Below, one piece after another: positions 28,129 through 60,419 of a stretch of 64,000 nt of DNA. Made by a program: the position numbers and the translations under genes. The DNA comes from Escherichia coli (GTDB lineage Bacteria; Pseudomonadota; Gammaproteobacteria; Enterobacterales; Enterobacteriaceae): assembly GCF_003334385.1 (NCBI RefSeq), contig NZ_QOWN01000012.1; one strand, given 5' to 3'. The notes under the pieces were generated by a model that was given only the letters and a program-made list of their open reading frames with translations, was not told where the DNA came from and ran no database searches. The number at the start of each line of letters is the position of its first letter. The first letter of the stretch is position 1.

Positions 28129-29577
28129 TTATTCTCCATGCTCATTTTTCTTCAGCTTGCGCATCAGAAGCCACATACGTACTGTCCTGACTTTTAAATC
28201 TTTATCAGAGACGGATTCCTTCACCAGGTCAGCATGATGCTGATAGCCATTAAAGAAGACGTTCAGCACAACGGCGCTAAGGGTTGCGAGCATAATGCCG
28301 CTATGTAGCAGCGGTTGCAGTACGGCCGGTAACTTAGAAAAGAAATCGTGAGAGAGCGTCGGAGTCATGCCAACGCCGAGACTGATCGCCACAATATAGA
28401 GGTTGTAACGGTTGGTGGTGTAGTTACAGCGCGACAGAATTCGAATCCCTGTCGCCAGTACCATGCCGAACATCACTAGACCAGCGCCGCCCAGCACAAA
28501 TTGCGGAATGGAGGCTACCAGCACCGCCATTTTTGGCACCATGCCAAACAGGATTAATATAATTCCCGAAGAAATACACACCCAGCGGCTATGAACGCGC
28601 GTCACGCTAACCAGGCCAACGTTTTGAGAAAATGACGTGTGGGGGAAGCTGTTAAACGTGCCGCCTATCATTGTCCCTACGCCATCGACACGCAGCCCGC
28701 GAATAATATCGTGCGAAGAGAGTTTACGACCGACTATTTCACCCAGTGCCAGGAACATCCCCATCGACTCGATAAACACGATGATTAACACGGCAGTCAT
28801 GGTCAGAATGGAAACGGGATCGAAAATCGGCATACCAAACGACATCGGCGTAACAATCGCAAACCATGAAGCATCATGTAGCCCGGATAAATTGACTTCA
28901 TTCATCATCCACGAAAGTAAAAAGCCAAATACAATCCCCAGTAATACGGCGACGTTGGACATAAATCCTTTCGCATAGCGAGTAATGAGCAAGATAAAAA
29001 TTAAGACGGCAAAGGAGATACCTAAATAAACGGGATTACCATATTGCGGATTCCCTTTACCTCCGGCGGCCCAGTCAATACCCACCTGAATGATGCTAAG
29101 CCCGATAGAAGTAATAACCACACCGGTAACCAGTGGCGGGAATAAAGGCATCAAGCGACCGATAAGTGGCGCTAATAATGTGGTGATAAAACCCGCGGCG
29201 ATAGTGGCACCAAATATCCCCAGCAGGCCGATATCCGGGTTCATCCCAATGGCTATCATTGGTGTTACAGCAGCAAAGGTCACCGACATAATCACCGGCA
29301 GGCGGATCCCCATAAAGCGGCCGATACCGATACATTGCAATAATGTGACGATCCCGCAGCAAAAGAGATCCGAGCTAATGAGCATCGCAATAGCTTCTTT
29401 TGAGAGGCCCAGTCGGTCACCAATCATAAGAGGAACAGCGACTGCACCTGCGTACATGACAAGGACGTGTTGCAGACCGAGTATGATCAGCTTTCCTGGT
29501 GATAATATGCGGTCAACCTCATCAGTTGGGCGGTCTTGCCCAGAAGATGAGGGAAGTTGGGAATCTATGGCGCTCAT
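28129..29577 (-). CDS. uacT: uric acid:H+ symporter, NCS2/NAT family (482 aa)
   Basis: ORF 28129..29706. The recognised YgfU/UacT starts MSAIDSQLPSSSGQDRPTDEVDRILSPGKL. Confidence 0.93.
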   Translation of the reverse strand: MSAIDSQLPSSSGQDRPTDEVDRILSPGKLIILGLQHVLVMYAGAVAVPLMIGDRLGLSKEAIAMLISSDLFCCGIVTLLQCIGIGRFMGIRLPVIMSVTFAAVTPMIAIGMNPDIGLLGIFGATIAAGFITTLLAPLIGRLMPLFPPLVTGVVITSIGLSIIQVGIDWAAGGKGNPQYGNPVYLGISFAVLIFILLITRYAKGFMSNVAVLLGIVFGFLLSWMMNEVNLSGLHDASWFAIVTPMSFGMPIFDPVSILTMTAVLIIVFIESMGMFLALGEIVGRKLSSHDIIRGLRVDGVGTMIGGTFNSFPHTSFSQNVGLVSVTRVHSRWVCISSGIILILFGMVPKMAVLVASIPQFVLGGAGLVMFGMVLATGIRILSRCNYTTNRYNLYIVAISLGVGMTPTLSHDFFSKLPAVLQPLLHSGIMLATLSAVVLNVFFNGYQHHADLVKESVSDKDLKVRTVRMWLLMRKLKKNEHGE

Positions 29578-29645
29578 CAGTGTTTCTCCTTTCGCCCGCC
29601 AGAGTAAAAAGCAACCGTTTACGTTAATGAAACTGTCTAAACACA

Positions 29646-29661
29646 TGCTCGTGGAGTGCCA
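29646..29661 (-). promoter_or_regulatory. candidate sigma54 (-24/-12) promoter for uacT
   Basis: Minus strand TGGCAC-TCCAC-GAGCA, with GG and GC correctly spaced, about 70 nt upstream of the uacT ATG. Confidence 0.4.
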
Positions 29662-29764
29662 GTTTTTGCGAGGAAGGGGAGTTAGAGACAGGAATTGCGG
29701 AGGCAATCACATAATCGTGGTTAAACCACGAAAATGAGAAGAGAACCTGACAATGGAATTATCT

Positions 29765-29785
29765 GTAATTTTCTCATATTGATAT
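29765..29785 (+). promoter_or_regulatory. shared purine-cluster motif copy 1 (GTAATTTTCTCATATTGATAT)
   Basis: The core CTCATATTGATAT is identical to 54811..54823 and matches 12 of 13 positions at 60627..60639 (minus strand). Confidence 0.45.
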
Positions 29786-30012
29786 TTCATTAATCATTCT
29801 GGCATGTCGCACTCTCGCATTTAATCGTTTTTATCTGGATAGCGCTCTTTTGATCGGCAATGTTGAAATAATGAAAGCGGCATAGATTGAGGGGCAATAA
29901 TTTGAACTCAGTCGCAAAATTATAATTAAAACGGTCATGCTACCTAATATATGCCCGTTTATTGCATCGCGAAATTTGAGAAGACATAACTCATTAAATG
30001 AAAGGGATGCAA

Positions 30013-31932
30013 ATGAATAAGTTTATTGCTGCTGAAGCTGCGGAATGTATAGGCTGTCATGCTTGTGAAATTGCCTGTGCGGTGGCACACAATCAAGAAA
30101 ACTGGCCGCTGAGTCACAGTGACTTTCGACCGCGTATCCACGTTGTAGGGAAAGGCCAGGCTGCGAATCCGGTGGCCTGCCATCACTGCAACAATGCCCC
30201 TTGCGTTACGGCTTGTCCGGTTAATGCTCTGACTTTCCAGTCCGATAGCGTACAACTGGACGAGCAAAAATGTATTGGTTGTAAAAGATGCGCAATCGCT
30301 TGCCCCTTTGGCGTCGTTGAGATGGTCGATACGATTGCGCAGAAATGCGACCTTTGTAACCAGCGCAGTTCCGGCACGCAAGCCTGTATTGAAGTTTGCC
30401 CAACACAGGCGTTACGACTGATGGACGATAAAGGGTTGCAGCAGATAAAGGTGGCCCGCCAGCGCAAAACGGCAGCAGGAAAAGCGTCATCAGACGCTCA
30501 GCCATCTCGCAGTGCAGCGTTGCTCCCCGTTAACTCGCGTAAAGGCGCAGATAAAATTTCAGCGAGTGAACGGAAAACCCACTTTGGCGAAATATATTGC
30601 GGGCTGGATCCACAACAAGCGACTTATGAGAGTGACCGCTGTGTTTATTGTGCCGAAAAAGCTAACTGCAACTGGCATTGCCCGCTGCATAACGCTATTC
30701 CGGATTACATCCGTCTGGTACAGGAAGGAAAGATTATTGAAGCGGCAGAACTTTGCCACCAGACCAGTTCCTTACCAGAAATTTGCGGCAGGGTATGTCC
30801 ACAGGACCGTCTTTGTGAAGGCGCATGTACTTTGAAAGATCACTCGGGCGCAGTCTCTATCGGTAATCTGGAACGCTACATCACCGATACCGCGCTGGCG
30901 ATGGGCTGGCGTCCCGATGTCAGCAAAGTTGTTCCCCGTAGCGAAAAAGTGGCGGTGATTGGCGCTGGGCCTGCAGGGTTAGGGTGTGCTGATATTCTGG
31001 CGCGCGCAGGAGTTCAGGTCGATGTCTTTGATCGCCATCCAGAAATTGGCGGTATGCTGACTTTTGGCATTCCTCCTTTCAAACTCGATAAAACGGTATT
31101 AAGCCAGCGGCGAGAGATATTCACCGCAATGGGAATCGACTTTCATCTTAACTGTGAAATTGGCCGCGATATTACCTTTAGCGATTTAACTTCTGAATAT
31201 GATGCAGTTTTCATCGGCGTGGGGACTTACGGGATGATGCGAGCAGATCTGCCGCATGAAGATGCGCCCGGTGTCATTCAGGCTCTACCGTTCCTGACTG
31301 CCCATACCCGCCAGCTCATGGGATTGCCGGAGTCTGAAGAGTATCCGCTGACGGACGTGGAAGGTAAGCGAGTCGTGGTATTGGGCGGTGGCGATACGAC
31401 AATGGATTGTTTGCGGACTTCCATCCGCCTCAATGCCGCCAGCGTGACCTGCGCGTATCGTCGTGATGAAGTCAGTATGCCGGGCTCGCGCAAAGAGGTG
31501 GTTAATGCGCGCGAGGAAGGTGTCGAGTTTCAGTTCAATGTTCAACCGCAATATATCGCTTGTGACGAAGATGGGCGTTTAACTGCGGTGGGCCTGATTC
31601 GTACCGCCATGGGTGAGCCGGGGCCGGATGGTCGCCGTCGTCCTCGTCCGGTAGCGGGTTCAGAGTTTGAATTGCCCGCCGATGTTCTGATTATGGCCTT
31701 TGGTTTCCAGGCGCATGCCATGCCGTGGTTGCAGGGCAGCGGAATTAAACTCGATAAATGGGGCCTGATTCAAACCGGTGACGTCGGGTATTTACCTACC
31801 CAGACGCATCTGAAAAAAGTCTTTGCTGGTGGTGATGCAGTTCATGGCGCGGATCTGGTTGTCACTGCAATGGCCGCAGGAAGGCAGGCGGCGCGCGATA
31901 TGTTAACTCTGTTTGATACGAAGGCATCGTGA
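30013..31932 (+). CDS. ygfT: Fe-S ferredoxin-fused GltD-like NAD(P)H oxidoreductase YgfT (639 aa)
   Basis: ORF 29998..31932, recognised start [22 protein letters not shown]. Four CxxCxxCxxxC-type motifs are followed by [21 protein letters not shown]. Confidence 0.92.
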
Positions 31933-32420
31933 TGAAATCGTTAATTATCGTTAATCCGGCTGACTGTATTGGCTGCCGTACTTGTGAAGTAGCCTGTGTG
32001 GTCGCTCACCCTTCAGAACAGGAGTTGAATGCCGATGTCTTTTTACCCCGGCTGAAGGTACAGCGACTGGACAGCATCAGTGCGCCGGTGATGTGCCATC
32101 AGTGTGAAAACGCCCCTTGTGTTGGCGCTTGCCCCGTGGGGGCGCTGACGATGGGCGAGCAGGTGGTGCAGACCAATTCTGCCCGTTGTATTGGCTGTCA
32201 GAGTTGCGTCAGTGCGTGCCCGTTTGGAATGATCACCATTCAGTCGTTGCCGGGGGATACCCGACAACAAATTGTGAAATGCGATCTCTGTGAACAGCGG
32301 GAAGAGGGGCCAGCCTGCGTTGAATCTTGCCCAACACAGGCGCTGCAGTTGCTTACTGAAAGAGAACTCAGGCGAGTCCGCCAGCAGCGTATTGTTGCCA
32401 GCGGTGAGAATCCTCTCTGA
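31932..32420 (+). CDS. ygfS: 4x[4Fe-4S] ferredoxin-type protein YgfS (162 aa)
   Basis: Contains [35 protein letters not shown] and CDLC..CVESC. The start overlaps the ygfT stop (TGATG). Confidence 0.9.
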
Positions 32421-32426
32421 AAGAAA

Positions 32427-32450
32427 TCTCCGCGCTGAAAGGCGCGGAGA
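32427..32450. terminator. bidirectional terminator between ygfS and ghxQ
   Basis: TCTCCGCGC-TGAAAG-GCGCGGAGA. Confidence 0.75.
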
Positions 32451-32455
32451 ATCTA

Positions 32456-33823
32456 TTAGATTGCCCAACCACCCGCGTAAAATGCGACCAGTGCGGCAGT
32501 AATGATCACCGTACCAATATTCAGCTTTTGCCATTCGCGTGCAAAGACGCGGCCTACGACCAGTGTCACAAAGCCCAGCATAATACCGGTAACGATATTA
32601 CAAGTCAGAACGATGAACACGGCACACACCAGGCCAGCCATAGCGTCAATAAAATCATTGAAATCCAGCTTCGAGACGTTACTTAACATCAGCAAACCTA
32701 CGTACATCAGAGCGGGTGCAGTGGCGTAACCAGGGATCAAAAATGACAGCGGTGATAAAAACAGAATTAACAGGAATAACGCCCCCACTACGGTTGCGGT
32801 TAAACCTGTTTTACCCCCGGCGGCGGTTCCTGCCGCTGATTCGATATAAACCGCTGCGGGCGCTGCGCCCACCAGGCCGGAGAATATTGAACTTACTGAG
32901 TCACTGGTCAGGGCTTTGCCGCCGTTGATGATCTGGTTGTCTTTATCCAACAAATTCGCCTGACCGGCGACGGCACGGATGGTGCCAGTAGCGTCGAACA
33001 CTGCGGTCATCACCAATGCCAGTACACTCGGAAGTACAGTTGGCTGGAGTGCACCCATAATATCGAGGCTGAAAATCAGAGACTTACCATCTTCGCCAGT
33101 CAGGCTTGGCATCGCCACCAGACCGTGGTATTTCACCGCTGGGTCAAAGATTAAGCCGATGATCGAAATTGCAATAATCACCAACAAGATCCCGCCGGGT
33201 ACGCGACACTTCTCCAGGCCGAAGATGACCGCCAGCCCCAGCAAGCTCATCATCACCGGGAAGGAGGTAAACGCACCGAGCGCCACTGGCAAGCCTTCAA
33301 TCGGGTTTTTGATAACCATACCCACACCGTTAGCAGCAATCAGCAGCAGAAACAGCCCGATACCGATACCTGTACCGTGAGCGATACCCATCGGCAAATT
33401 ACGTAAGATCCAGGTACGCACACCGGTTACGGAAATGGCGGTGAAGATGACGCCCATCAGAAATACCGCGCCCAGTGCGACAGGAACGCTAATTTGTTGC
33501 CCGAGTACCAGACTGAATGCGGTAAACGCCGTCAAGGAAATCGCGCAACCAATCGCCATTGGCAAATTAGCCCATAATCCCATCAGCAACGAGCCGAAGC
33601 CCGCGACCAGACAGGTGGCAACAAACACAGCTGCGGGAGGAAAACCTGCTTTGCCCAGCATTCCCGGAACGACGATAACGGAATAAACCATGGCCAGAAA
33701 GGTCGTTAAGCCAGCCAGTACTTCCTGACGAACGGTACTGCCACGAGCGGTAATTTTAAAATAATTATCCAGCGCGCCCTGTGGCTTTGGTGCGTCCGGT
33801 GTTTGTAGGATGTCTCCAGACAT
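32456..33823 (-). CDS. ghxQ: guanine/hypoxanthine permease (455 aa)
   Basis: 455-aa polytopic AzgA-type NCS2 [37 protein letters not shown]. Recognised as YgfQ. Confidence 0.93.
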
Positions 33824-33858
33824 AATGATGTCCTCACGAGGATGTTAAAGTTTTATTA

Positions 33859-35178
33859 TTAGTTGCGTTCGTACACCAGACGACCATCAACGTAGGTGCG
33901 GTAGATCGAACGGTCATCGCCCAACGTCATCATCACGAACAATTTGTCGACTAAAGAAACAGAGTTGTCATAGCGCAGCTGCTGTAGCGGAGTGGCGGTG
34001 GGTTCCATCACCACGAAATCAGCCTCTTTGCCAGGTAAAAAGTTGCCAATCAAATCGTCAAGGCCCAGAGATTTCGCTCCGCCGAGCGTGGCCAGGTAAA
34101 ACGCTTCATATGCCGAGAGGCGATAGCCTTGTAATTGCAATACTTTGTAGGCTTCGTTCAGCGTTTGCAGCATGTTGAAAGTGGTTCCGGCACCGATATC
34201 CGTTCCCATGCCCACTTTAACTTTCTTCTGCCATGCTTTTTTCAAGTTGAATAAGCCGCTGCCGAGGTAAAGGTTGGAGGTCGGACAGAAAGCAATGCTG
34301 GATTTGGTTTCGCTGAGACGATCCCACTCTTTTTCTTCGAGATGGACGCAGTGAGCAAAGACACAGTTTTTACCGGTCAGGCCGTACTGATGGTAAACAT
34401 CCAGATAACCATCATGGTCAGGATAAAGCGATTTCACCCAGGCAATTTCATCTTTGTTTTCACAGAGATGGGTATGTACCCACGTATCCGGATATTCTTC
34501 TTTCAGGCGTTGCGCCATCGCCATCTGTTCAGGAGATGAGGTCGGGGCGAAGCGTGGCGTAATCGCATATAGCAGACGACCATTTTTGTGCCAGCGTTCG
34601 ATCAGTTCTTTGCTTTGGTGATAGCTGCTTTCGGCAGTGTCGAGCAGATAATCCGGTGCGTTGCGGTCCATCATCACCTTACCGGCAATCATACGCATAT
34701 TGATATGACTGGCGGCTTCAAACAGCGCATCAACAGATTGCGGATGAACAGTGCCAAACACCAGCGCCGTGGTGGTTCCGTTACGTAAAAGCTGCTTGAT
34801 GAAGAACGCCGACATTTCGCGGGCGTACTCTAAATCCTCATAACGACGTTCAGTAGGGAAGGTGTGTTTATTCAACCACTCCAGCAATTGCTCACCATAG
34901 GCCCCCACCATTTCACTTTGCGGATAATGGATATGTGTATCGACAAAGCCCGGTACTATCAGTTTGCCGCGATAGTCGCGCACGCGAATGGTGTCAGGAA
35001 TTTGATGCTTTCCGTTTTCCCATTCGCCAAACCATTCCACTTTTCCCTGTTTAATGAGTAATAAACCATCCTCAATAAACCGCAGCGCAGAGGCAATCTC
35101 TTCCGGGTTATCGATCGTACGGGTGACATCAATAAAACTGCCTCGTACCGCTTTTAACGTGTGTTCTCCTGACATCAT
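33859..35178 (-). CDS. guaD: guanine deaminase (439 aa)
   Basis: The amidohydrolase HxH motif (FVDTHIHYPQ). Recognised as GuaD/YgfP. Confidence 0.95.
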   Translation of the reverse strand: MMSGEHTLKAVRGSFIDVTRTIDNPEEIASALRFIEDGLLLIKQGKVEWFGEWENGKHQIPDTIRVRDYRGKLIVPGFVDTHIHYPQSEMVGAYGEQLLEWLNKHTFPTERRYEDLEYAREMSAFFIKQLLRNGTTTALVFGTVHPQSVDALFEAASHINMRMIAGKVMMDRNAPDYLLDTAESSYHQSKELIERWHKNGRLLYAITPRFAPTSSPEQMAMAQRLKEEYPDTWVHTHLCENKDEIAWVKSLYPDHDGYLDVYHQYGLTGKNCVFAHCVHLEEKEWDRLSETKSSIAFCPTSNLYLGSGLFNLKKAWQKKVKVGMGTDIGAGTTFNMLQTLNEAYKVLQLQGYRLSAYEAFYLATLGGAKSLGLDDLIGNFLPGKEADFVVMEPTATPLQQLRYDNSVSLVDKLFVMMTLGDDRSIYRTYVDGRLVYERN

Positions 35179-35192
35179 TGACTCCTTTACTG

Positions 35193-48364: not shown

Positions 48365-48370
48365 TTTAAA

Positions 48371-49350: not shown

Positions 49351-50736
49351 TTAGAGCACGGGAGGGACAAACGGTTTGCGTCGCAGGAAACGACCTCGCC
49401 CGGCTTTGCCTGTAAAGGTGCCGTCACAGAAAATCGTTTCACCACGGGATAAGGTTCTGACAATCGCGCCCTGACAGGTAAAACCCTCCCATGGCGAGTA
49501 GTCGGCGTTGTCGTGGAGATGGCGATGCTGAATTTGTTGGCTCTGACGTGGGTCGATAATCACCACGTCGCCGTCGGAACCGGGCGCTAATAATCCTTTT
49601 TGCGGCCACAGGCCAAACAACCTGGCGGGCATTGCGCTGGTTAATTCAACAAAGCGTTCCGGTGTTATACGTCCCGTCATCACGCCACTGGAAAACAGTA
49701 ACTGCATGCGGTTTTCCACACCGGGTAAGCCATTTGGGCAGCGACTGAAATCGCCTTTAGAAATTTGCAGGCGTTGAGCCATCGAGAAGGTGCAGTGATC
49801 GGTTGCCACCACGTCAATCGCACCATCGCTGATGCCACACCACAGTTTGTCCTGCTCGCGTACGTTACGCAGCGGTGGGCTAAGAATGAACTTCATGCCA
49901 TCTTCTGTATCGTAACTGCGTTCGTCCAACAGGAGATATTGTGGGCAGGTTTCAACCCAGACTGGCTGGTGATTCGCACGGGCAAGACGCAGATAATCCA
50001 GACCTAAGCCGTTAGACAGGTGCACGATATAGAGCGGGGCGTTACCGGCAATTTGTGCCAGGTTAATCATGCGGGCGATGGCTTCCGCTTCGCATTCCAG
50101 AGGGCGACTCAAGGCATGATAGCGCGGCGCGGTTAACCCTGCGGCGATAAATTCCGCCCGCTTGCTGGCGATAGCCGCATCATTTTCCGGGTGCACGGTG
50201 GTCAGCGCGCCGGATTCATGCAAGCGGCGTAATGCCTGCAAAACCTCGTCATCGTTGAGTTTGTATTGATAGGTTAAATAGAGTTTAAAACTGCTCAGTC
50301 CTTCCTCGACCATCATCGGGATTTCGTCGAGGATTGCGTGATTAATGTGCTGGATCACACCGTGAAAGCTGTAATCGATGACCGCTTTATGGGCGGCATA
50401 ACCACGATAAACCTCCAGTTGATGGCGTAACCGACAGCCGTTTGGGCCAAATCCCATATGGTCAATAATGGTTGTTGTACCGCCACACGCAGCTGCGCGG
50501 GTACCGGTAAAAAAATCATCACAACTGCGCGCGATGCCGACATCAATATTGAAATGCGTATGGACATCCACGCCGCCAGGGAAAACGTAACAGCCAGTGG
50601 CATCAATTTCTTCATACGGGAGCTGCGGCGAAATATTGTTGCCCAACTGGCGAACAATCCCGCTTTCAATCAGCAAATCCTGTTTGGCTTGTCCATCTGC
50701 GTTAACGACAGTGCCGTTTTTGATCAATACGCGCAT
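49351..50736 (-). CDS. hyuA: D-phenylhydantoinase / cyclic amidohydrolase HyuA (461 aa)
   Basis: ORF 49351..50748, recognised start MRVLIKNGTVVNADGQAKQDLLIE. Motif GGVDVHTHF. Confidence 0.93.
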   Translation of the reverse strand: MRVLIKNGTVVNADGQAKQDLLIESGIVRQLGNNISPQLPYEEIDATGCYVFPGGVDVHTHFNIDVGIARSCDDFFTGTRAAACGGTTTIIDHMGFGPNGCRLRHQLEVYRGYAAHKAVIDYSFHGVIQHINHAILDEIPMMVEEGLSSFKLYLTYQYKLNDDEVLQALRRLHESGALTTVHPENDAAIASKRAEFIAAGLTAPRYHALSRPLECEAEAIARMINLAQIAGNAPLYIVHLSNGLGLDYLRLARANHQPVWVETCPQYLLLDERSYDTEDGMKFILSPPLRNVREQDKLWCGISDGAIDVVATDHCTFSMAQRLQISKGDFSRCPNGLPGVENRMQLLFSSGVMTGRITPERFVELTSAMPARLFGLWPQKGLLAPGSDGDVVIIDPRQSQQIQHRHLHDNADYSPWEGFTCQGAIVRTLSRGETIFCDGTFTGKAGRGRFLRRKPFVPPVL

Positions 50737-50788: not shown

Positions 50789-52000
50789 TTACTCTGTTGC
50801 CAGCCAGCTTAACGGGATTGCAGCGTACATCGCGGCACAGGTCACCAGGTGAGATTTCCAGGTTTTTTCGTTAGGTGCATGCGCTTCAGGTTCTTTACCC
50901 GGGCCAAAGCCGATCACCGGAATGCCGTGACGGCCCATGATAGATACGCCGTTAGTTGAGAAGGTCCACTTATCAACAACCGGCGCTTTGCCAAACAGCC
51001 CTTCGTAGGCATTCACCAGTGCTTTAACGGTGAAGTGATCTTCTTCCACTTTCCAGGTCGGGAAGTAGCATTCGGTTGGGTAAACCAGGCCAGTCCAGGA
51101 CGGACGGTCGTAGTTGTACATAGAAACAACCGCGTTAGCTTTCTGTACTGCAGGCAGGGCGCGGATTTCGTCCAGCGCGCCTTCCCAGGTTTCGCCCCAG
51201 GTCAGACGACGGTCGATTGAAACTGCGCAGCTGTCTGCTACAGCGCAACGGCTTGGGGATGTGAAGAAGATTTCAGAAACGGTGAGGGTGCCTTTGCCGA
51301 GGAATTCGTCATAACCCAGACGTTGGGAGAGTTCTTGTAATTCGCCAAGAATCGGACCCATTTTGAAAATGGCGTTATCACCGCGTTCTGGTGCAGAACC
51401 GTGGCAGCTAACACCCTGAACATCAATACGAATTTCCATACGACCGCGCTGACCACGGTATACCTGGCAGTCGGTTGGTTCGGTACTGACCACAAATTCC
51501 GGGCGAATGCCGGATTGTTCAATAATGTACTGCCAGCACAGACCGTCGCAGTCTTCTTCCTGCACCGTACCGGTAACCAGCAGGGTATATTCATCTTCCA
51601 GACCGAGGTCTTTAATGATTTTACCGGCATAAACCATAGAGGCCATGCCACCTTCCTGGTCGGAAGTACCGCGACCACCAATCAGTTCATCAGTTTCCAT
51701 GCCTTCGTACGGATCGAAGTCCCAGTTTTTGATGTTGCCAATGCCGACGGTATCGATATGAGCGTCCATTGCCACCAGACGCGGGCCGTGGCCGATATAA
51801 CCGAGAACGTTGCCCATCGGGTCGATTTCAACTTTATCGAAGCCGACTTTTTCCATCTCTTCTTTAATACGATGTACTACGCGTTTCTCGTCGCAGCTTT
51901 CACTGGGAATAGCAACCATGTCGCGCAGGAAGCGAGTCATATCCGCCTGGTAATCTTTTGCTTTTTCAAGAATCAGTTTGAATGGAATATTCTTAGCCAT
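50789..52000 (-). CDS. ygeY: M20-family amidohydrolase/peptidase YgeY (403 aa)
   Basis: 403-aa [38 protein letters not shown], ArgE/DapE/ACY1 type. Recognised. Confidence 0.92.
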
Positions 52001-52057: not shown

Positions 52058-53254
52058 TTAAGGTGCTACAGCGTGTTTGCCTTCCCAGACAACTTCGCGG
52101 TAGTGCTTCACGTCGGTGTCGCCTTCAGTGCTGATAACCAGCACCACGGCATCTTTGTTCAGCGCCAGTTTTTCCATCAGGCTTTGACGTTGCGGGTGAT
52201 AATGAACCGCTGCGAGAACGCCCAAACCGACAGCGCCGGATTCACCGGAGATGATGCGCGGGTCGTTGCCGTACGGATTACCCAGCACGCGCATACCTAA
52301 TGCGGCAACGCTGTCCTGGCAGGAGATGAATTGGGTGGCGCAGTTACGTAGGATTTCCCAGCCCAGCGGGTTAGGTTCGCCACAGGCCAGGCCTGCCATG
52401 ATGGTGGCCATATCACCGCCAACGTTGACGATGTCGCCTTTGACGCCGGAGCGATAAATACAGTCAGCTTTGTCAGGTTCAACAATAATGCTGTGCAGAT
52501 TTTGCGGGCTATAGACGTCGACCAGATAACCCAGCACACCACCGGCCATTGCTCCGACACCGGCTTGCAGCAGAACGTGCGTCGGGGTTACGCCCATTTC
52601 ACGCATTTGCTCGACGGCTTCATCTGCCAGGGTTGCGTAGCCTTGCATGATCCAGGTTGGGATTTTGGTGTAACCTTCCCATGCCGTGTCCTGTACCACT
52701 TCCCAGCCGTGCTGCTGCGCGTGTTGCATGGTCAGGCGAACGGTATCGTCATAGTTCATATCCGTGACGATGCACTCGGCACCGAGGTTCAGAATGGCGT
52801 CAACGCGTTCCTGAGCAGAACCTTTCGGCATGTAAATCACCGCATTCTGTCCGAGTTGCTGTGCTGCCCACGCCACACCGCGCCCGTGGTTGCCGTCGGT
52901 GGTGGTCGCGAAAGTCATTTTTTCGCCGATGGCATTTTTCAGGTGCTCAAATGACAGCGTTTCGATATCAAGATGATATTTTTCACACAATAATTGAGCG
53001 ATGGCGTACGCACCGCCAAGCATTTTGAAGGCGTTCAGACCGAATCGTTTTGATTCGTCTTTGACGAGAATTTTCTTCACACCAAAAAGGTTTGCGAGAT
53101 CGTCCAGCGCACAAAGCGGTGTTGGGCGATAACCAGCTATTTTCTGGTGGAACTGGCGCGCCAGTTTGGCCTGGCTTTGCGAAAAGAGCGGTGATGTTTC
53201 GCCGTTGAAAAATTTGTTATCGGCGATATCAATCTTCAATGAGAAAACGGACAT
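52058..53254 (-). CDS. ygeX: 2,3-diaminopropionate ammonia-lyase (PLP) (398 aa)
   Basis: 398-aa ORF MSVFSLKIDIADNKFFNGETSPLF with the PLP-lysine context KDESKRFGLNAFKMLGG. Recognised. Confidence 0.93.
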   Translation of the reverse strand: MSVFSLKIDIADNKFFNGETSPLFSQSQAKLARQFHQKIAGYRPTPLCALDDLANLFGVKKILVKDESKRFGLNAFKMLGGAYAIAQLLCEKYHLDIETLSFEHLKNAIGEKMTFATTTDGNHGRGVAWAAQQLGQNAVIYMPKGSAQERVDAILNLGAECIVTDMNYDDTVRLTMQHAQQHGWEVVQDTAWEGYTKIPTWIMQGYATLADEAVEQMREMGVTPTHVLLQAGVGAMAGGVLGYLVDVYSPQNLHSIIVEPDKADCIYRSGVKGDIVNVGGDMATIMAGLACGEPNPLGWEILRNCATQFISCQDSVAALGMRVLGNPYGNDPRIISGESGAVGLGVLAAVHYHPQRQSLMEKLALNKDAVVLVISTEGDTDVKHYREVVWEGKHAVAP

Positions 53255-53311: not shown

Positions 53312-54502
53312 TTATTTCACGCGTTCTTGCGCTTCTTTCAGCAGTTGCTCGAGCAGTGCACCTGGTTTGGCGTATTTACGGGACAGGATCATCGCGGCGA
53401 TGATATAAGGCTTCCAGCTGGCTTCTTTGTAGGTAGCGATACGGTATTTTTCGAATACGCCTTCAGTCACTTCACCTTCTTTACAGGATACGCCGCTGAT
53501 ATCAGCTGGCAGGCAGTGCATGTACAGGGCTTCGCCATCACGGGTCAGTTCCATCATCTCTTCAGTACAATGCCAGTCTTTGTGTTGCGCGTTCTGTGCC
53601 AGACACTGTTTTTCCAGTGCTTTTAAGCCTTCGTGATCGTTCGCACGCAGCAATTCAGTACGCTCTTCCATCACTTTGTAAGGTGCCCATGACTTCGGAT
53701 AAACGATGTCTGCGTCTTTGAAGGCTTCTTCCATGCTGGTGACCTGACGGAAGCTACCACCGGAGGCTTTAGCATTGTTTTTCGCCACTTCAACCACATC
53801 CGGGATCAGGTCGTAGCCTTCCGGATGGGCCAGGGTGACATCCATACCGAAGCGAGTCATCAGACCGATGATGCCTTGTGGTACAGAGAGCGGTTTGCCA
53901 TAGCTTGGAGAGTAGGCCCAGGTCATGGCGATTTTTTTACCTTTCAGGTTTTCCAGTGAACCAAAGTGTTCACGTAACCACGCGAGGTCAGCCATTGACT
54001 GAGTCGGGTGGTCAATATCGCATTGCAGGTTCACTAAAGCCGGACGCTGTGGCAGTACACCCTGCTTGTAACCGTCATCAAGTGCAGCGCCAACTTCACG
54101 CATATAGGCGTTGCCTGCGCCCAGATACATATCGTCGCGAATACCAATAGCGTCGGCGCAGAAGGAGATCATATTGGCGGTTTCACGCACGGTTTCGCCG
54201 TGAGCGATTTGTGATTTGCCTTCGTCGAGATCTTGTTGTGCAAGGCCGAGCAGGTTAAGCGCGGAAGCATAAGAGAAGCGGGTACGGGTGGAGTTGTCGC
54301 GGAATACGGAAATACCTAATCCACTATTAAAGACTTTGGTTGAGATGTTTTCAGCACGCAGTGCTTTTAATGCTGCGGCAACGTCCAGTACTTGTTTCAG
54401 TTCATCTGGCGTCTGTTCCCACGTTAACAAAAAATCTTTCTCGTGAAGGTGAGAGGTCAGCGAATTGATATCCTTAATCAGCTCATTAACAGTTTTCATC
54501 AT
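53312..54502 (-). CDS. ygeW: knotted carbamoyltransferase YgeW (396 aa)
   Basis: 396-aa ORF MMKTVNELIKDINSLTSHLHEKDFLLTWEQ with the STRTR carbamoyl-phosphate motif. Recognised. Confidence 0.93.
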   Translation of the reverse strand: MMKTVNELIKDINSLTSHLHEKDFLLTWEQTPDELKQVLDVAAALKALRAENISTKVFNSGLGISVFRDNSTRTRFSYASALNLLGLAQQDLDEGKSQIAHGETVRETANMISFCADAIGIRDDMYLGAGNAYMREVGAALDDGYKQGVLPQRPALVNLQCDIDHPTQSMADLAWLREHFGSLENLKGKKIAMTWAYSPSYGKPLSVPQGIIGLMTRFGMDVTLAHPEGYDLIPDVVEVAKNNAKASGGSFRQVTSMEEAFKDADIVYPKSWAPYKVMEERTELLRANDHEGLKALEKQCLAQNAQHKDWHCTEEMMELTRDGEALYMHCLPADISGVSCKEGEVTEGVFEKYRIATYKEASWKPYIIAAMILSRKYAKPGALLEQLLKEAQERVK

Positions 54503-54592: not shown

Positions 54593-54608
54593 AACAATAA
54601 GTGTGCCA
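54593..54608 (-). promoter_or_regulatory. weak sigma54-like element upstream of ygeW
   Basis: Minus strand TGGCAC-ACTTA-TTGTT. The -24 element is perfect, but the -12 element reads GT where GC is expected. Confidence 0.25.
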
Positions 54609-54804
54609 GAATTATCCGCGCGGCTGCAAAAGACTAATTTGACGGATAATGTGTGGGGTTGATCACAAATTGATGCCAGCTTCTGGTTGTTTGTAAAATA
54701 CGAAAACGTTTGGCTTTTTTTATCGCGTTATTTATTTGCTGCTAAGTATCAGAAATAAGATAAAGGGGCAGGCTATCTCTCTTCAGTTTGATAAACTCAC
54801 CGCC

Positions 54805-54977: not shown

Positions 54978-56756
54978 ATGGAGCTTGCTACTACGCAGTC
55001 AGTATTGATGCAAATTCAACCGACAATTCAGCGTTTTGCCAGAATGCTTGCCAGCGTTTTGCAGCTTGAGGTTGAGATCGTTGATGAAAACTTGTGTCGC
55101 GTTGCCGGAACGGGCGCGTATGGGAAGTTTCTTGGTCGCCAGTTGAGCGGCAACTCACGCCTGCTCCGCCACGTCCTGGAAACGAAAACTGAAAAAGTTG
55201 TGACACAGTCTCGCTTCGATCCCCTTTGCGAAGGTTGCGATAGTAAAGAAAATTGCCGCGAAAAAGCATTTCTGGGTACGCCTGTCATTTTACAGGATCG
55301 TTGTGTTGGGGTGATAAGTTTGATTGCCGTTACCCACGAGCAACAAGAGCATATCAGTGATAATTTACGCGAATTTTCTGATTATGTTCGCCATATATCC
55401 ACCATTTTTGTTTCGAAACTTCTGGAGGATCAGGGGCCAGGAGATAACATCAGTAAAATATTTGCGACCATGATCGATAATATGGATCAGGGCGTATTAG
55501 TTGTAGATGATGAAAATCGGGTTCAGTTTGTTAATCAGACTGCCTTAAAAACACTTGGTGTTGTGCAAAATAATATTATTGGGAAACCTATCCGTTTCAG
55601 ACCATTAACATTTGAGAGTAATTTTACCCATGGACATATGCAGCATATTGTTTCATGGGACGATAAAAGTGAATTAATCATTGGTCAATTGCATAACATT
55701 CAGGGCCGACAATTATTTTTAATGGCGTTTCACCAATCGCATACCAGTTTTTCTGTAGCAAATGCACCTGATGAACCGCATATTGAACAATTGGTTGGCG
55801 AGTGCCGTGTTATGCGGCAATTAAAACGACTCATTAGCCGTATTGCACCCAGCCCATCCAGCGTTATGGTGGTTGGTGAAAGCGGCACGGGTAAAGAAGT
55901 CGTCGCCCGTGCAATCCATAAGTTGAGCGGAAGACGGAATAAACCCTTTATTGCTATCAACTGTGCCGCGATTCCGGAGCAGCTTCTGGAGAGCGAACTG
56001 TTCGGTTATGTTAAAGGTGCATTTACTGGCGCTTCTGCCAACGGTAAAACAGGGTTGATTCAGGCGGCGAATACGGGCACGCTGTTTCTCGATGAAATAG
56101 GTGATATGCCATTAATGTTGCAGGCTAAATTACTGCGCGCTATTGAGGCACGTGAAATTCTGCCGATTGGTGCCAGTAGCCCAATACAAGTCGACATTCG
56201 CATCATTTCTGCAACTAATCAGAATTTGGCCCAGTTCATTGCCGAAGGTAAATTCCGCGAAGATCTCTTCTACCGACTTAATGTTATCCCGATAACTCTG
56301 CCACCGCTGCGTGAACGTCAGGAAGATATTGAACTATTGGTGCATTACTTTTTACATCTGCATACCCGTCGTCTGGGATCGGTTTATCCTGGCATTGCTC
56401 CCGATGTCGTCGAAATATTGCGTAAGCATCGTTGGCCCGGAAACCTGCGCGAGTTAAGCAATTTGATGGAATATCTGGTTAACGTGGTTCCTTCAGGTGA
56501 AGTTATCGACAGCACGCTATTGCCGCCAAATCTGCTGAATAATGGCACAACGGAGCAAAGTGATGTAACAGAGGTCAGTGAGGCGCACCTGTCACTCGAT
56601 GATGCGGGCGGCACGGCGCTGGAGGAGATGGAAAAGCAAATGATCCGCGAGGCGCTTTCACGTCATAACAGCAAGAAGCAAGTTGCTGATGAACTGGGCA
56701 TCGGCATTGCTACGCTCTATCGCAAGATTAAGAAATATGAGTTGTTAAACACATAA
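54978..56756 (+). CDS. ygeV: sigma54-dependent transcriptional activator YgeV (592 aa)
   Basis: AAA+ core with Walker A GESGTGKE and the sigma54-contact motif GAFTGA, plus a C-terminal HTH (IGIATLYRKIKKY). Recognised. Confidence 0.95.
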   Translation: MELATTQSVLMQIQPTIQRFARMLASVLQLEVEIVDENLCRVAGTGAYGKFLGRQLSGNSRLLRHVLETKTEKVVTQSRFDPLCEGCDSKENCREKAFLGTPVILQDRCVGVISLIAVTHEQQEHISDNLREFSDYVRHISTIFVSKLLEDQGPGDNISKIFATMIDNMDQGVLVVDDENRVQFVNQTALKTLGVVQNNIIGKPIRFRPLTFESNFTHGHMQHIVSWDDKSELIIGQLHNIQGRQLFLMAFHQSHTSFSVANAPDEPHIEQLVGECRVMRQLKRLISRIAPSPSSVMVVGESGTGKEVVARAIHKLSGRRNKPFIAINCAAIPEQLLESELFGYVKGAFTGASANGKTGLIQAANTGTLFLDEIGDMPLMLQAKLLRAIEAREILPIGASSPIQVDIRIISATNQNLAQFIAEGKFREDLFYRLNVIPITLPPLRERQEDIELLVHYFLHLHTRRLGSVYPGIAPDVVEILRKHRWPGNLRELSNLMEYLVNVVPSGEVIDSTLLPPNLLNNGTTEQSDVTEVSEAHLSLDDAGGTALEEMEKQMIREALSRHNSKKQVADELGIGIATLYRKIKKYELLNT

Positions 56757-56765
56757 CCTCAGTGA

Positions 56766-56789
56766 ATCCGGCCTGAATTCAGGCCGGAT
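56766..56789. terminator. bidirectional terminator between ygeV and xdhC
   Basis: Perfect palindrome ATCCGGCCTGAATTCAGGCCGGAT. Confidence 0.75.
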
Positions 56790-56795
56790 ATCCTT

Positions 56796-57275
56796 TTACT
56801 TCGTTTTCTCGCAATCCAGAACTGTATTTACAATCATCTGATACCCCGTGCAGCGACAAAGATTTCCCGCCAGTCCGCGACGAATTTCCGTAATGGTTAA
56901 TGGCTTCTCGCGTGGTTTCGCCAGCATTGCCGTGGTAGCCATAATCAGGCCAGGCGTACAAAACCCGCACTGCACTGCGCCGGATTTCGCATAAGCCTGC
57001 TGAACATGAGAAAGTTTTCCGCCTTTCGCTTCACCTTCCAGCGTGCGGATCTCTTTTCCTTCAGCCCAGGCGGCAAGGTATAAGCAACTGTCTATTGCTG
57101 TGCCGTCGACCAACACCGTACAGGCACCACATTCACCCACGCAGCACCCTTGTTTGACACTTAGCAGTCCTTGTTCGCGGAGTAATTCCGAGAGCGGCGT
57201 GCCTGGTGCGGCGTGAAGCTGAAAAGGCATCCCGTTAATGGTGCATTCGATGGTAATTGTTTCGCTGTGATTCAT
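56796..57275 (-). CDS. xdhC: xanthine dehydrogenase Fe-S subunit (159 aa)
   Basis: Intact 2x[2Fe-2S] ligands: [12 protein letters not shown] and [14 protein letters not shown]. Confidence 0.95.
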
Positions 57276-58150
57276 TGCAATTTTCCCCCCGCCGCGGCGA
57301 CGGCTTCGCTAATCACTTTTTTGGTCATCGTCTGGATGAGATGCAGACGAAACTCTTTACTGGCCCGCCATGAAGAACGCGGGGCGACATCTTGCAGGAC
57401 AGATTCGCTGATAGCTTCCAGCGTTTGCAGGTTTAATGGCGCATTTTGTGCAGTCTGTTCGGCATGTTGGCAGCGAATCGGCGTTGGCGCGGCAACACCA
57501 AATGCCAGGCGTAATTCGCTGAAATTGCCGTTATCCAGTCGGCAATGTGCGGCGCAGCCAATCGTTGAAATATCCATTGCGTCGCGCATGGCATATTTAA
57601 AATGCGCGCTGCCCGCGTGTTCTTTCGGCTGTGGCGGAAAATGAAAGGCGACGAGGATTTCGTCATGCTCAAGAGACACTTTGCCCGGCCCGGTGTGAAA
57701 GCCATTAATCGGGACGAAACGAACACCGCGCGGGGAGTGGATCTCCAGTTTCGCGTCATAAATTAGCGTTGGCGTGGCAGAATCTGCGCTGGTGGCACCG
57801 TTGCAAATATTTCCACCGTAGGTAGCGACGTTACGGATCTGCGGTCCAGCAATGGACGTGGCCGCAGCACATAACGCCGGGAGATGACGTTGAGTTATAG
57901 GATCTTCTATTAGCTGGGTAAATGTCGTTGCAGAGCCGATACGTAGCGAGCCATCTTCCGCCAGCGTAATTCCCCGCAGCTCCGCCAGATTATGAATATC
58001 AACAATATGGCGATAACGGTCATTGTGATGGTGGAGCTGAATCAGTACGTCAGTGCCACCGGCGAGCAGTTTGGCCTGCGGGTTGTCAGCCAGCAGGTTG
58101 ATGGCATCGGCAAGGGTTGCTGCGCGATGGTAAGAAGCAAAATCAAACAT
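57272..58150 (-). CDS. xdhB: xanthine dehydrogenase FAD-binding subunit (292 aa)
   Basis: 292-aa ORF with [16 protein letters not shown] overlap with xdhC. Confidence 0.95.
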
Positions 58151-58160
58151 GATGTTATCC

Positions 58161-60419
58161 TCAAATCAATCCTGCCAGATGGAACTCTTCATATAACCGT
58201 TTTGGCGTCAGCGGCAGTGTATTGATTGCAACACCGGTAGCCATCTTCACCGCGTTACGAATAGCAGCGGCAACAGGAATTATTGGTGGCTCACCCAGTG
58301 ACTTATGTCCGTATGCGGATTGCGGCTCATTGATTTCGACGAACGCGCTTTCCAGTTGTGGCAGATCCGGCATGGTCGGCATTTTGTAATCCAGCAGATT
58401 GGGGTTACGGACCACGCCGCTTTTAGCATCGATGATCATCTCTTCAAATAGCGCCCAGCCAATGCCCATTCCCATTCCGCCGTGTACCTGACCTTCTGCC
58501 AGCAGTGGATTAAGAATATGCCCTGAATCATGAACGTTGAGGATGCGGTTGATGGTGACTTTGCACAGCGCAATATCGACCGTCAGATCAACAAAGGTAC
58601 AGCCAAACGCCGGTGGGTTAGTGGTGGTTTTGATGGAGCTTTCAGCAGAGAGCTGCCCGCCGCGTTCAGGGTGGTAGAAAGCGTCCATCGCCAAATCTTT
58701 TAACGACATTAACGGCTCTTCCGGTCGTTCAACCAGCACGATATGGCCTTTTATCAGGGTCAGATTCATCGCTGACTGATGTAGCATGACTGCGGCGTGA
58801 GCGATGATTTTCTCTTTTAATAATAGTGCCGCACTGCGCAGCGCAGGCGCGGCAACATAGCTCTGGCGTGAGGCAAATGCGCCGGGATCGAACGGCGTAA
58901 CGTCGGTATCTTGAGTTGAAATAACGCGAACGTCGCTGACCGGAACCCCCACGGTTTCTGCCACCATTTGCGAGAAGACGGTGTCGGCACCCTGACCGAT
59001 TTCCGTCGCGCCGCTTTGCACGTTGATGGTTCCATCCTGATTCATCAGAAGGCGCGCGCCTGCTATTTCTACGCCGACAGGCCAGGTGTTAGAGGTGTAG
59101 CTAAAACAGGCGACGCCAACGCCGCGGCGCAAATTGCCTTGCTGGTTCTGGCATTCTGCACGGCGTTTTTCCCATTCAAAGATTTTCCGGCCTTTTTCAA
59201 GACACTCCGGCAACCCTGCGCTGTAAATACGTTTGCCCGTGAGCGGATTAGCATCTCCTTCGCGGGCGGCGTTGCGTAAACGAATTTCAACAGGATCAAT
59301 ACCTAACGCTGTCGCGGCGTCATCAAGCATAGACTCAACGGCAAATACGACTTGTGGCGCGCCATAACCACGCATCGCACCAGCCGAGGGGAGGTTGGTA
59401 TAGCAGGTCTTTGAACTGTAAGCGTAGGCACAACGAGGATAAAGGTAAGCGACTTTATTCCCCCCCGCAGAAGCGATGGAGTGCCCGTGAGATGCATAAG
59501 CGCCGGTGTTAGACAGAACATCCAGACTATAACCTTTCAATGTTCCGTCGCGGTTCACGCCCATTTGCCCGTCAATGGTAAAAGCGTGGCGGGTACGGGT
59601 TGCGAGGAAACACTCTTCACGGCTAAGGGAAACTTTCACCGGAATGCCGCCAAGCTTGCTGGTCAGGAATGCCGCCATTGGCTCTTCCAGTACATCCTGT
59701 TTATTACCAAAACCGCCACCGACAAATGGTTTGATGACTCGTACGCATGACCAGGGAATATCCAGCGCCTGACCAACCACGCGGCGAACAATGTGCGGGA
59801 TCTGGGTGCTGGAAACGATGGTAATTCGCGAGTCATCCTCCATCCACGCCAGCGATGTTACGCTTTCCATGTGACAATGTTGAATAACGGGGGTCTGATA
59901 GTGCCCCTGTACCTGGTAGTCGGCGGCATCGATTGTTTGTTGGACATTACCCGTCGACATCGTGCTTTGTTTCAGTAAATTGCCACCGTTATGGATTGGT
60001 GCAGCGTCTTCTGCCAGCGCCGCTTCTGGCGTGGTGATAACGGGTAATTCTTGCCACTCAATGCTGACCAATTGCGCCGCTTTTTCTGCCGTGAGTTCAT
60101 CGCGGGCCACGACGATGGCAACGGCGTCACCATGATGACGAACATGGCGAGTTAGCAGTGCGCGATCGGCGGTATCGCGCTTGTTTTCGTCAAGTGTCCA
60201 GGCATGCCCAGCTGTAGCGAATGGAATATCAGGCACATCTTCCCAGGTAAAAATCGCCAGTACGCCCGGCAAACTTCTGGCTTGTTCATCATTAATACTT
60301 ACGGCATAACCATGTGCGATAGGGCTACGTACATATTTCGCATAACACATGCCCGCCATAACATAATCGTCAGTATATCGTGCCCGCCCGGTGACCTTAG
60401 CAATGGCATCGACGCGCAT
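58161..60419 (-). CDS. xdhA: xanthine dehydrogenase molybdenum-binding subunit (752 aa)
   Basis: ORF 58161..60458, recognised start MRVDAIAKVTGRARYTDDY. Motif GGGFGNK. Confidence 0.94.
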   Translation of the reverse strand: MRVDAIAKVTGRARYTDDYVMAGMCYAKYVRSPIAHGYAVSINDEQARSLPGVLAIFTWEDVPDIPFATAGHAWTLDENKRDTADRALLTRHVRHHGDAVAIVVARDELTAEKAAQLVSIEWQELPVITTPEAALAEDAAPIHNGGNLLKQSTMSTGNVQQTIDAADYQVQGHYQTPVIQHCHMESVTSLAWMEDDSRITIVSSTQIPHIVRRVVGQALDIPWSCVRVIKPFVGGGFGNKQDVLEEPMAAFLTSKLGGIPVKVSLSREECFLATRTRHAFTIDGQMGVNRDGTLKGYSLDVLSNTGAYASHGHSIASAGGNKVAYLYPRCAYAYSSKTCYTNLPSAGAMRGYGAPQVVFAVESMLDDAATALGIDPVEIRLRNAAREGDANPLTGKRIYSAGLPECLEKGRKIFEWEKRRAECQNQQGNLRRGVGVACFSYTSNTWPVGVEIAGARLLMNQDGTINVQSGATEIGQGADTVFSQMVAETVGVPVSDVRVISTQDTDVTPFDPGAFASRQSYVAAPALRSAALLLKEKIIAHAAVMLHQSAMNLTLIKGHIVLVERPEEPLMSLKDLAMDAFYHPERGGQLSAESSIKTTTNPPAFGCTFVDLTVDIALCKVTINRILNVHDSGHILNPLLAEGQVHGGMGMGIGWALFEEMIIDAKSGVVRNPNLLDYKMPTMPDLPQLESAFVEINEPQSAYGHKSLGEPPIIPVAAAIRNAVKMATGVAINTLPLTPKRLYEEFHLAGLI

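Follow-up and report, generated by a model that had tools for sequence, protein, structure and literature searches.

We analysed a 64,000-nucleotide stretch of Escherichia coli DNA (contig NZ_QOWN01000012.1 of assembly GCF_003334385.1; hereafter the window). Its block from uacT to xdhA (28129-60458) is almost certainly the purine-to-pyruvate catabolic regulon of E. coli, in which urate is degraded reductively through 2,8-dioxopurine. In fact, the block is the same locus as the published 2,8-dioxopurine or reductive uric acid degradation cluster and is already known. The route was published with enzymes of E. coli K-12 (Liu et al., 2025, bioRxiv 10.1101/2025.04.24.650524; Li et al., 2025, Life Metab, PMC12507026), and an independent commentary agreed with the route given in both papers. 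Since the pathway has been published, our finding adds no new biology at this level. Two modest new leads came out of the analysis, a regulatory palindrome and a cysteine-less domain in XdhD. The pathway is relevant to human urate homeostasis, gout and probiotic engineering.

Identity and conservation of the locus

The region 28129-60458 corresponded to the uacT-xdhA region of the E. coli chromosome. Position 28129 is the stop end of uacT and 60419 is the K-12 start of xdhA, for which the RefSeq start now lies at 60458. The left part (28129-48000) matched a number of complete genomes at 100%, and of the 5426 complete E. coli genomes 5156 carried at least 80% of it; the right part (48000-60500) was present in the same number of complete genomes (5156/5426) at the same threshold of at least 80%. 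Nineteen of the 22 block proteins were identical to those of K-12 MG1655. The other three were HyuA (I142M), XanQ (C433S) and XdhA, which differed solely in its annotated start. Gene content and order were also those of the K-12 2,8-dioxopurine cluster, the two substitutions being the differences found in pathway genes. Conversion of urate by these enzymes is a published activity of the K-12 proteins, and the identity of the sequences predicts it for the proteins encoded here.

The open reading frames (ORFs) and the RefSeq annotation gave the order uacT (minus strand), ygfT-ygfS (plus), ghxQ-guaD-xanQ (minus), xdhD-ygfM-ssnA-ygfK (minus), mocA (minus) and yqeC-yqeB (plus) for the left half, and yqeA-hyuA-ygeY-ygeX-ygeW (minus), ygeV (plus) and xdhC-xdhB-xdhA (minus) for the right half. 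A first-pass annotation made from the letters of this DNA had described the block as devoted to purines, which the gene identities and the family scans confirmed. Every gene it named scored above a curated NCBIfam or Pfam cut-off, with Pfam PF00860 as the sole family match of GhxQ; however, it overlooked ygfT-ygfS (30013-32420) inside the block. It had also noted the lack of uricase and of all/gcl genes. Across the whole window no uricase, 5-hydroxyisourate (HIU) hydrolase, allantoinase/allantoicase or gcl was annotated. Allantoin genes are present elsewhere in E. coli (Li et al., 2025, introduction), and the lack is therefore true of the block but not of the organism.

The best 80 SsnA loci from other organisms, all of them Gammaproteobacteria, were sampled for synteny, and the counts refer to the 65 loci that spanned the full +/-10 kb. 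ygfK adjoined ssnA in 64 of these 65 full-length loci, while yqeB, yqeA, hyuA, ygeY, ygfM, xdhD, mocA and yqeC each occurred within +/-10 kb of ssnA in 43-56 of them. ygeW, ygeX, ygeV and xdhABC lie more than 10 kb from ssnA, so that their low counts reflect the range inspected and not absence. The same gene order was found from Escherichia to Aeromonas and Ferrimonas, and synteny was kept across Enterobacterales, Morganella, Aeromonas and Ferrimonas; a wider distribution, across phyla, has been described in the pathway papers. The clustering of the block genes is not due to chance. An earlier study had described conserved clustering of b2866-b2882 with SelD, as well as co-clustering of YqeB and YqeC (Haft and Self, 2008).

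From purines to pyruvate

Three permeases would import the substrates: UacT urate, XanQ xanthine, and GhxQ guanine and hypoxanthine. uacT (28129..29577, minus) encodes a urate:H+ symporter of the NCS2 family (TIGR03173, 510 bits, above cut-off) that was identical to K-12; xanQ (35193..36593, minus) matched TIGR00801 with 455 bits and carried the C433S change relative to K-12; and ghxQ (32456..33823, minus) was assigned as a guanine/hypoxanthine permease by PF00860 (271 bits) and annotation. The imported purines would then be funnelled to urate by GuaD and XdhABC. The guanine deaminase gene guaD (33859..35178, minus; TIGR02967, 634 bits) accounts for guanine to xanthine. The xanthine dehydrogenase (XDH), which converts hypoxanthine to xanthine and urate, is encoded by xdhA for the Mo subunit (58161..60458, minus; NF007426, 1486 bits), xdhB for the FAD subunit (57272..58150, minus; NF007427, 534 bits) and xdhC for the 2x[2Fe-2S] subunit, with all 8 Cys present (56796..57275, minus; NF007387, 342 bits). 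The annotation of E. coli ML35 lists xdhC as a pseudogene interrupted by a stop, while the window copy was intact and identical to that of K-12.

Degradation of urate would start with XdhD-YgfM, which is reported to strip the 6-oxo group reductively and yield 2,8-dioxopurine, as XdhAC does in C. sporogenes. xdhD (36758..39628, minus) encodes a Mo-hydroxylase whose activity from urate to 2,8-dioxopurine has been published (TIGR03313, 2123 bits; cut-off 1102), and ygfM (39625..40404, minus; TIGR03312, 490 bits; PF00941) encodes the FAD subunit that co-purified with XdhD (Li et al., 2025). In the second step 2,8-dioxopurine would be reduced by YgfK with NAD(P)H, flavin and Fe-S centres; ygfK (41786..44884, minus; TIGR03315, 1779 bits) encodes an NAD(P)H:2,8-dioxopurine oxidoreductase of published activity, with PDB and Foldseek matches to permuted modules of the dihydropyrimidine dehydrogenase (DPD) type. 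The amidohydrolase gene ssnA (40455..41783, minus; TIGR03314, 738 bits; HxH motif) lies 2 bp from ygfK. SsnA, also of published activity, opens the pyrimidine ring of dihydro-2,8-dioxopurine and would do so by hydrolysis at C4, giving mainly 5-ureidomethylhydantoin; 5-ureidodihydrouracil was reported as the minor product (Li et al., 2025).

The remaining enzymes are encoded in a single co-directional operon on the minus strand (48371-54502). HyuA (49351..50736; TIGR02033, 676 bits; I142M relative to K-12), a hydantoinase with published activity, would open the hydantoin ring to 2,3-diureidopropionate. YgeW (53312..54502; NF005538, 825 bits), a published knotted carbamoyltransferase with STRTR/HPTQ/HCLP motifs, would phosphorolyse one ureido group to carbamoyl phosphate, from which the carbamate kinase YqeA (48371..49303; TIGR00746, 386 bits) would make ATP from ADP. 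The other ureido group would be hydrolysed by the M20 hydrolase YgeY (50789..52000; TIGR03526, 722 bits; published), leaving 2,3-diaminopropionate, which the published diaminopropionate ammonia-lyase YgeX (dpaL; 52058..53254; TIGR03528, 651 bits) would convert to pyruvate and 2 NH3. ATP formation by YgeW and YqeA was shown in vitro, and E. coli deletion mutants piled up the same intermediates as the C. sporogenes mutants (Liu et al., 2025). On balance, urate + 4 [H] would give pyruvate + 2 CO2 + 4 NH3, with one ATP through carbamoyl phosphate. The genetics of the cluster was reportedly the subject of work by Liu et al. and by Kasahara et al. in 2023.

The window also contained mocA (45206..45784, minus; TIGR03310, 214 bits) for a cytidylyltransferase of the molybdenum cofactor (Moco) that makes the molybdopterin cytosine dinucleotide (MCD) cofactor, yqeC (45887..46657, plus; TIGR03172, 241 bits) for a selenium-cofactor maturation protein, and yqeB (46705..48330, plus; TIGR03309, 417 bits; Pfam XdhC_CoxI and XdhC_C) for an XdhC-like or selenium-dependent Moco maturation protein. 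These family matches agree with the role in cofactor maturation given to all three at first pass. Judging from their families and from genetics, MocA, YqeB and YqeC would mature the Mo/Se cofactor together with SelD. selD was not in the window, and the literature places it (b1764) elsewhere in E. coli (Haft and Self, 2008). In C. sporogenes both Mo enzymes require SelD/selenium, and xdhAC mutants are blocked at the first step.

Alternative schemes

The first-pass annotation had read the block as an oxygen-independent, ATP-yielding system for purines and urate, which was shown in 2025 with the same E. coli proteins. Its C3 residue, 2,3-diaminopropionate, and the fate of this residue as pyruvate and NH3 through YgeX have likewise been published, and its view of YgfK as a DPD-like reductase agrees with the published activity and with the DPD-type modules that we matched. 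The scheme drawn from these parts, taken literally, is nevertheless very improbable. It consisted of a single reduction of C4=C5 in a 6-oxo purine, urate or xanthine, by YgfK and ring opening by SsnA, HyuA and YgeY. Both C2 and C8 would pass through YgeW/YqeA as carbamoyl phosphate with two ATP gained, and C6 would become the carboxyl of diaminopropionate. The enzyme classes were correct. Purine C4=C5 is indeed the bond that a DPD would attack if it acted on the uracil part of xanthine, and the kinship of YgfK with DPD is supported. However, YgfK selects 2,8-dioxopurine and not xanthine (Liu et al., 2025). Furthermore, the structures of the SsnA products require that purine C6 be a CH2, C5 a CH and C4 a carbonyl; the hydrogens are thus on C6 and C5, and it is C5-C6 that is saturated instead. 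From these structures we infer that the carboxyl of diaminopropionate derives from purine C4 and its CH2NH2 group from C6. As C4 ends as the carbonyl or carboxyl, the C3 unit has the reverse orientation of that expected from a 6-oxo purine.

The electron balance also argues against the literal scheme, since urate to diaminopropionate is a net four-electron reduction that a single two-electron step cannot balance. No step had been given to XdhD, which in fact starts the pathway by 6-dehydroxylation of urate and whose C. sporogenes counterpart is indispensable for the first step, as the mutants described above indicate. SsnA and HyuA were rightly named as ring openers, but YgeY hydrolyses a ureido group and opens no ring. 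Likewise, one ureido group does go through YgeW and YqeA to ATP, but the second is lost by hydrolysis, and ATP has been shown for the single YgeW step only. Two published results have already refuted the literal scheme, namely the identification of 2,8-dioxopurine in mutants of ygfK and the reconstitution in vitro. The experiments and refuting tests proposed at first pass have largely been done and passed in the 2025 papers; its step assignments, roughly two-thirds of them right, have been superseded by experiment.

An older annotation treats YgfK-YgfM-XdhD as a selenate reductase and assigns the genes around it to selenium metabolism instead of purine catabolism. The RefSeq/NCBIfam names still read 'putative selenate reductase subunit YgfK' and 'selenium metabolism-linked hydrolase', and the genes co-occur with SelD, YqeB and YqeC (Haft and Self, 2008). 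We regard this explanation as highly unlikely, because YgfK neither needs selenate nor is stimulated by it (Liu et al., 2025), because selenium is a cofactor requirement of the Mo hydroxylases, and because each enzyme has an assigned purine-derived substrate. Least probable of all is that unrecognised enzymes carry out the classical clostridial (Rabinowitz) route from xanthine to formiminoglycine or an aerobic-type uricase/allantoin route: HyuA does resemble allantoinase, though its 255 bits stay below the cut-off of 358, and SsnA and GuaD do share the amidohydrolase superfamily with other enzymes acting on purine rings, but mutants of E. coli and C. sporogenes showed no Rabinowitz intermediates, the route ends in pyruvate and not in formiminoglycine (Liu et al., 2025), and the uricase, allantoinase, allantoicase and gcl genes are the ones not annotated in the window. 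A 'D-hydantoinase / D-amino-acid production' reading was rejected on published biochemistry.

The reductive 2,8-dioxopurine pathway thus remains the preferred assignment of the block, though several points weigh against it. Liu et al. (2025) and Li et al. (2025) disagree on the order in which the two ureido groups are cleaved, and the former treat the product structures of YgfK and SsnA as provisional. The two studies also differ in the electron donor of YgfK, which is NADPH in one (Liu et al., 2025) and NAD(P)H/NADH in the other (Li et al., 2025), and C. sporogenes XdhAC does not use NAD(P)H (Liu et al., 2025). Use of urate by K-12 is slow and confined to certain media. On the regulatory side, YgeV has also been linked to indole signalling, and its binding to the candidate palindrome described below is a prediction from sequence. 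Finally, XdhD lacks all eight cysteine ligands of the [2Fe-2S] clusters, so that the textbook wire FAD -> Fe-S -> Mo cannot exist in XdhD-YgfM.

Modules of YgfK and related pathways

Sequence and fold searches confined the matches of YgfK to pig DPD, NfnB and GltD to residues 436-850, the Fe-S/FAD/NADPH input module. Residues 436-843 matched pig DPD (1h7x) in phmmer with an E value of 1e-30, the input module gave a Foldseek match with an E value of about 1e-23, and the families PF14691 and PF07992 were present. For the N-terminal part (residues 1-440) no Pfam match was obtained, PF01180 included. A model of full-length YgfK (pLDDT 69.6, pTM 0.46) returned the central NfnB/GltD/DPD module alone in the fold search, and therefore a separate domain model was made. 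In this model of residues 1-440 (pLDDT 75.8, pTM 0.81), nearly all top PDB matches were flavin mononucleotide (FMN) barrels of dihydroorotate dehydrogenase (DHODH), though the matches were weak (E about 1e-3, TM 0.45-0.57). Two CxxCxxCxxxC motifs followed at 898-948. The order in YgfK was therefore a barrel-like part (1-440), the input module (436-850) and the CxxCxxCxxxC motifs (898-948), which is not the DPD order of an N-terminal input module followed by the barrel. All DPD modules appear to be present in YgfK in permuted order, and the structural modelling of YgfK by Li et al. (2025) agrees with DPD-type modules.

The block resembles the reductive pyrimidine (Pyd) pathway in its succession of flavin/Fe-S dearomatisation, ring opening by a cyclic amidohydrolase and removal of an N-carbamoyl group (DPD/PydA, dihydropyrimidinase/PydB and beta-ureidopropionase/PydC). 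YgfK shares the DPD input module and may, on weaker matches, share a DHODH-like barrel as well, and HyuA belongs to the dihydropyrimidinase family. However, the substrate is a bicyclic purine, which first loses O6 and then has both rings opened; of the two ureido groups, one leaves by energy-conserving phosphorolysis; and the barrel-like part of YgfK is N-terminal. The ATP-yielding part recalls the arginine deiminase pathway, in which a phosphorolytic carbamoyltransferase and a carbamate kinase also provide substrate-level ATP and whose STRTR/HPxQ/HCLP motifs are shared by YgeW; here, in contrast, the donor is 2,3-diureidopropionate instead of citrulline, and YgeW falls in the distinct 'knotted' family.

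A fused domain of XdhD without [2Fe-2S] ligands

XdhD shares with the XDH family (R. capsulatus XDH, bovine xanthine oxidoreductase, E. coli XdhABC and PaoABC) the hammerhead domain, the two Moco-binding domains and a partner FAD subunit; the families matched were PF01315, PF02738 and PF20256 in XdhD and PF00941 in YgfM. It differs from the family in being reductive, in attacking C6 of urate, and in a fused [2Fe-2S]-like domain without the eight cysteines. The N-terminus of XdhD was homologous to XdhC, the 2x[2Fe-2S] subunit (33% identity, E 2e-22; Pfam Fer2_2). The domain comprises residues 1-175 (39100-39628, minus strand), and no Cys was found in residues 1-189. At the eight ligand positions, where XdhC has CCCC/CCCC, XdhD had D, A, D, S / S, N, S, D. 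The annotation of XdhD as 'Mo/Fe-S-binding subunit' is contradicted by this cysteine-less domain.

The replacement is not peculiar to this strain. The 53 XdhD orthologues recognised among the sampled gammaproteobacterial loci kept the motifs SDDGFGFAGSDA, VQSGYNDPA and FSRDAGW/Y, and the same replacement motifs occurred in a 51%-identical cluster from gut Oscillospiraceae, including Vescimonas fastidiosa. On a gut Oscillospiraceae metagenome contig (5814-12880), a single operon of xdhA-xdhC-xdhB-ygfM-like-xdhD, located away from ssnA/ygfK, paired a canonical Fe-S-containing XDH with the cysteine-less XdhD. More than 30 other fused relatives, on the other hand, kept all eight cysteines, while one representative (P0246) was without the first cluster only.

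To our knowledge, every characterised member of the XDH family transfers electrons between FAD and Moco through two [2Fe-2S] clusters. With no such wire in XdhD-YgfM, the NADH-dependent activity reported for it (Li et al., 2025) needs a mechanistic explanation. It is possible, although we consider it somewhat doubtful, that the E. coli-type XdhD clade (Gammaproteobacteria and gut Oscillospiraceae) exchanged its ligands for conserved Asp/Ser/Asn/Ala, kept YgfM, and relies on another electron path or on a donor protein from the block. If both clusters were indeed gone, there would be an undescribed electron path in XdhD-YgfM, or the donor would be another protein of the block, with YgfT/YgfS, or YgfK with its own Fe-S chain, as candidates; a donor from the block would also account for why E. 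coli depends on formate when it uses urate. Other possible explanations are slow long-range transfer that suffices for an end-point assay, or a different docking geometry. Fe-S in XdhD is mentioned in neither pathway paper (Liu et al., 2025; Li et al., 2025), and no discussion of the loss of its Fe-S cysteines was found in the searchable literature, subscription literature lying outside the search. The cysteine-less XdhD bears on the acknowledged question of the physiological electron donor of the first step.

YgfT and YgfS as a probable electron input

The gene pair overlooked at first pass has a probable place in the supply of electrons. ygfT (30013..31932, plus; NF009451, 1506 bits; Pfam Fer4_11, Fer4_20 and Pyr_redox_2) encodes an Fe-S/flavin oxidoreductase named 'formate-dependent uric acid utilization protein', and the co-operonic ygfS (31932..32420, plus; Pfam 4Fe-4S dicluster families) encodes a ferredoxin-like protein of the 4x[4Fe-4S] type with 16 Cys in four CxxCxxCxxxC-like groups. 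In earlier work, ygfT/ygfS were reported as genes of formate-dependent urate utilisation and ygfT as induced by urate. YgfT probably acts as an electron input, and YgfT/YgfS would feed electrons, for example from formate, into both reductive steps. In Serratia sp. 2723 and Cedecea colo we observed a compact variant of the locus, ygeX-ygeY-hyuA-yqeA / ygfK-ssnA / ygfS-ygfT, with ygfS-ygfT directly after ssnA, an arrangement that ties YgfT/YgfS to the core of the pathway. This variant had no xdhD/ygfM beside ssnA; a divergent xdhC/xdhB-like set and a mocA-like gene lay about 8 kb off.

Regulation by sigma54 and, probably, YgeV

All four sigma54 sites identified in K-12 by chromatin immunoprecipitation sequencing (ChIP-seq; Bonocora, 2015) were present exactly in the window. 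The -24/-12 elements lie upstream of ygfT (29950..29966, plus; TATGCCCGTTTATTGCA), of the ygfK-ssnA-ygfM-xdhD operon (44957..44973, minus; GTGGTGCGATTGTTGCT), of the ygeW-ygeX-ygeY-hyuA-yqeA operon (54593..54609, minus; CTGGCACACTTATTGTT) and of xdhABC (60514..60530, minus; CTGGCGTAAATCTTGCC). A scan of the window with a generic sigma54 consensus gave 49 matches against 43 expected, which is no enrichment, and the promoter calls therefore rest on position and the published ChIP-seq. A sigma70 promoter scan of the window performed at chance level and was not used.

ygeV (54978..56756, plus) encodes a sigma54 enhancer-binding protein with a PAS segment, an AAA+ domain (PF00158, 238 bits) and a helix-turn-helix (PF02954), with the Walker A motif at residue 300 and GAFTGA at residue 347. 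These domains and the published iModulon upheld its first-pass assignment as the sigma54 activator. The YgeV iModulon consists of exactly the xdhABC, ygeW-yqeA, ygfK-xdhD and ygfT-ygfS operons and uacT. When the four upstream regions were searched for shared words, one 11-mer was obtained that was absent from 30 of 30 shuffles. The palindrome TATCAWWATGATA, with at most two mismatches, had 14 strand matches in the window (3.96 +/- 2.2 expected), a number reached in 0 of 100 shuffles. Six of the nine distinct palindrome sites sat 100-300 bp upstream of the four sigma54 elements, and each promoter had at least one. The copy TATCAATATGAGA (29772..29784), which may serve YgeV as an enhancer site for ygfT and perhaps also for uacT, lay some 170 bp upstream of the sigma54 element of ygfT, and the candidate site for the ygfK operon was a perfect palindrome, TATCATTATGATA (45142..45154). 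Two copies in the ygeV-ygeW intergenic region (54810-54822 and 54908-54920) and two palindrome-like copies upstream of xdhA (60628-60640 and 60649-60661) are further candidate YgeV sites.

The element was also found in other bacteria. Of the 73 related loci, 72 had TATCA-N3-TGATA in the stretch 240-320 bp upstream of ygfK, a count inflated by the kinship of these loci, although the element persisted to about 65-72% YgfK identity; its density there was 2.74 per kb, compared with 0.13 per kb elsewhere. TATCA-N3-TGATA is a candidate enhancer site of YgeV, and through this shared palindrome YgeV alone would drive the four sigma54 operons (xdhABC, ygeW-yqeA, ygfK-xdhD and ygfT-ygfS). The palindrome provides a candidate YgeV operator that can be tested at each of the four sigma54 promoters. 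Regulation has been stated to be the bottleneck for urate consumption by E. coli (Liu et al., 2025), and one group built a therapeutic strain by replacing this very intergenic region (Li et al., 2025).

Inside the ygeW-yqeA operon, GC-rich hairpins followed by T-rich tracts were seen on the minus strand just after ygeW (53284-53305) and just after ygeY (50752-50771). These hairpins may be internal attenuators or RNA-stability elements.

Spacer and flanking DNA

The spacer between yqeB and yqeA (48331-48370) was 40 bp long and contained one hairpin (GGCCGGATGGTATTACCCACCCGGCC), compared with 220 bp in K-12 and ML35. The additional DNA of these strains, about 180 bp in all, comprised a repetitive extragenic palindromic (REP)-like insert of some 153 bp and, flanking it, the hairpin once more.

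Collinearity with K-12 and ML35 stopped right after tRNA-Gly(CCC) at 61780 (region 61707-63984). In place of ygeQ and the ETT2 remnants, the window carried an ORF of 535 aa (61915-63522) with weak similarity to tyrosine recombinases, followed by an ORF of 153 aa for which no family match was obtained. This suggests that a different island was integrated at glyU. In the left part of the window, Rfam models identified a Sib antitoxin RNA opposite ibsC (3979-4129), 6S RNA (ssrS; 4778-4961) and naRNA4 (18472-18549), and the programmed frameshift of prfB was present in the annotation of the window.

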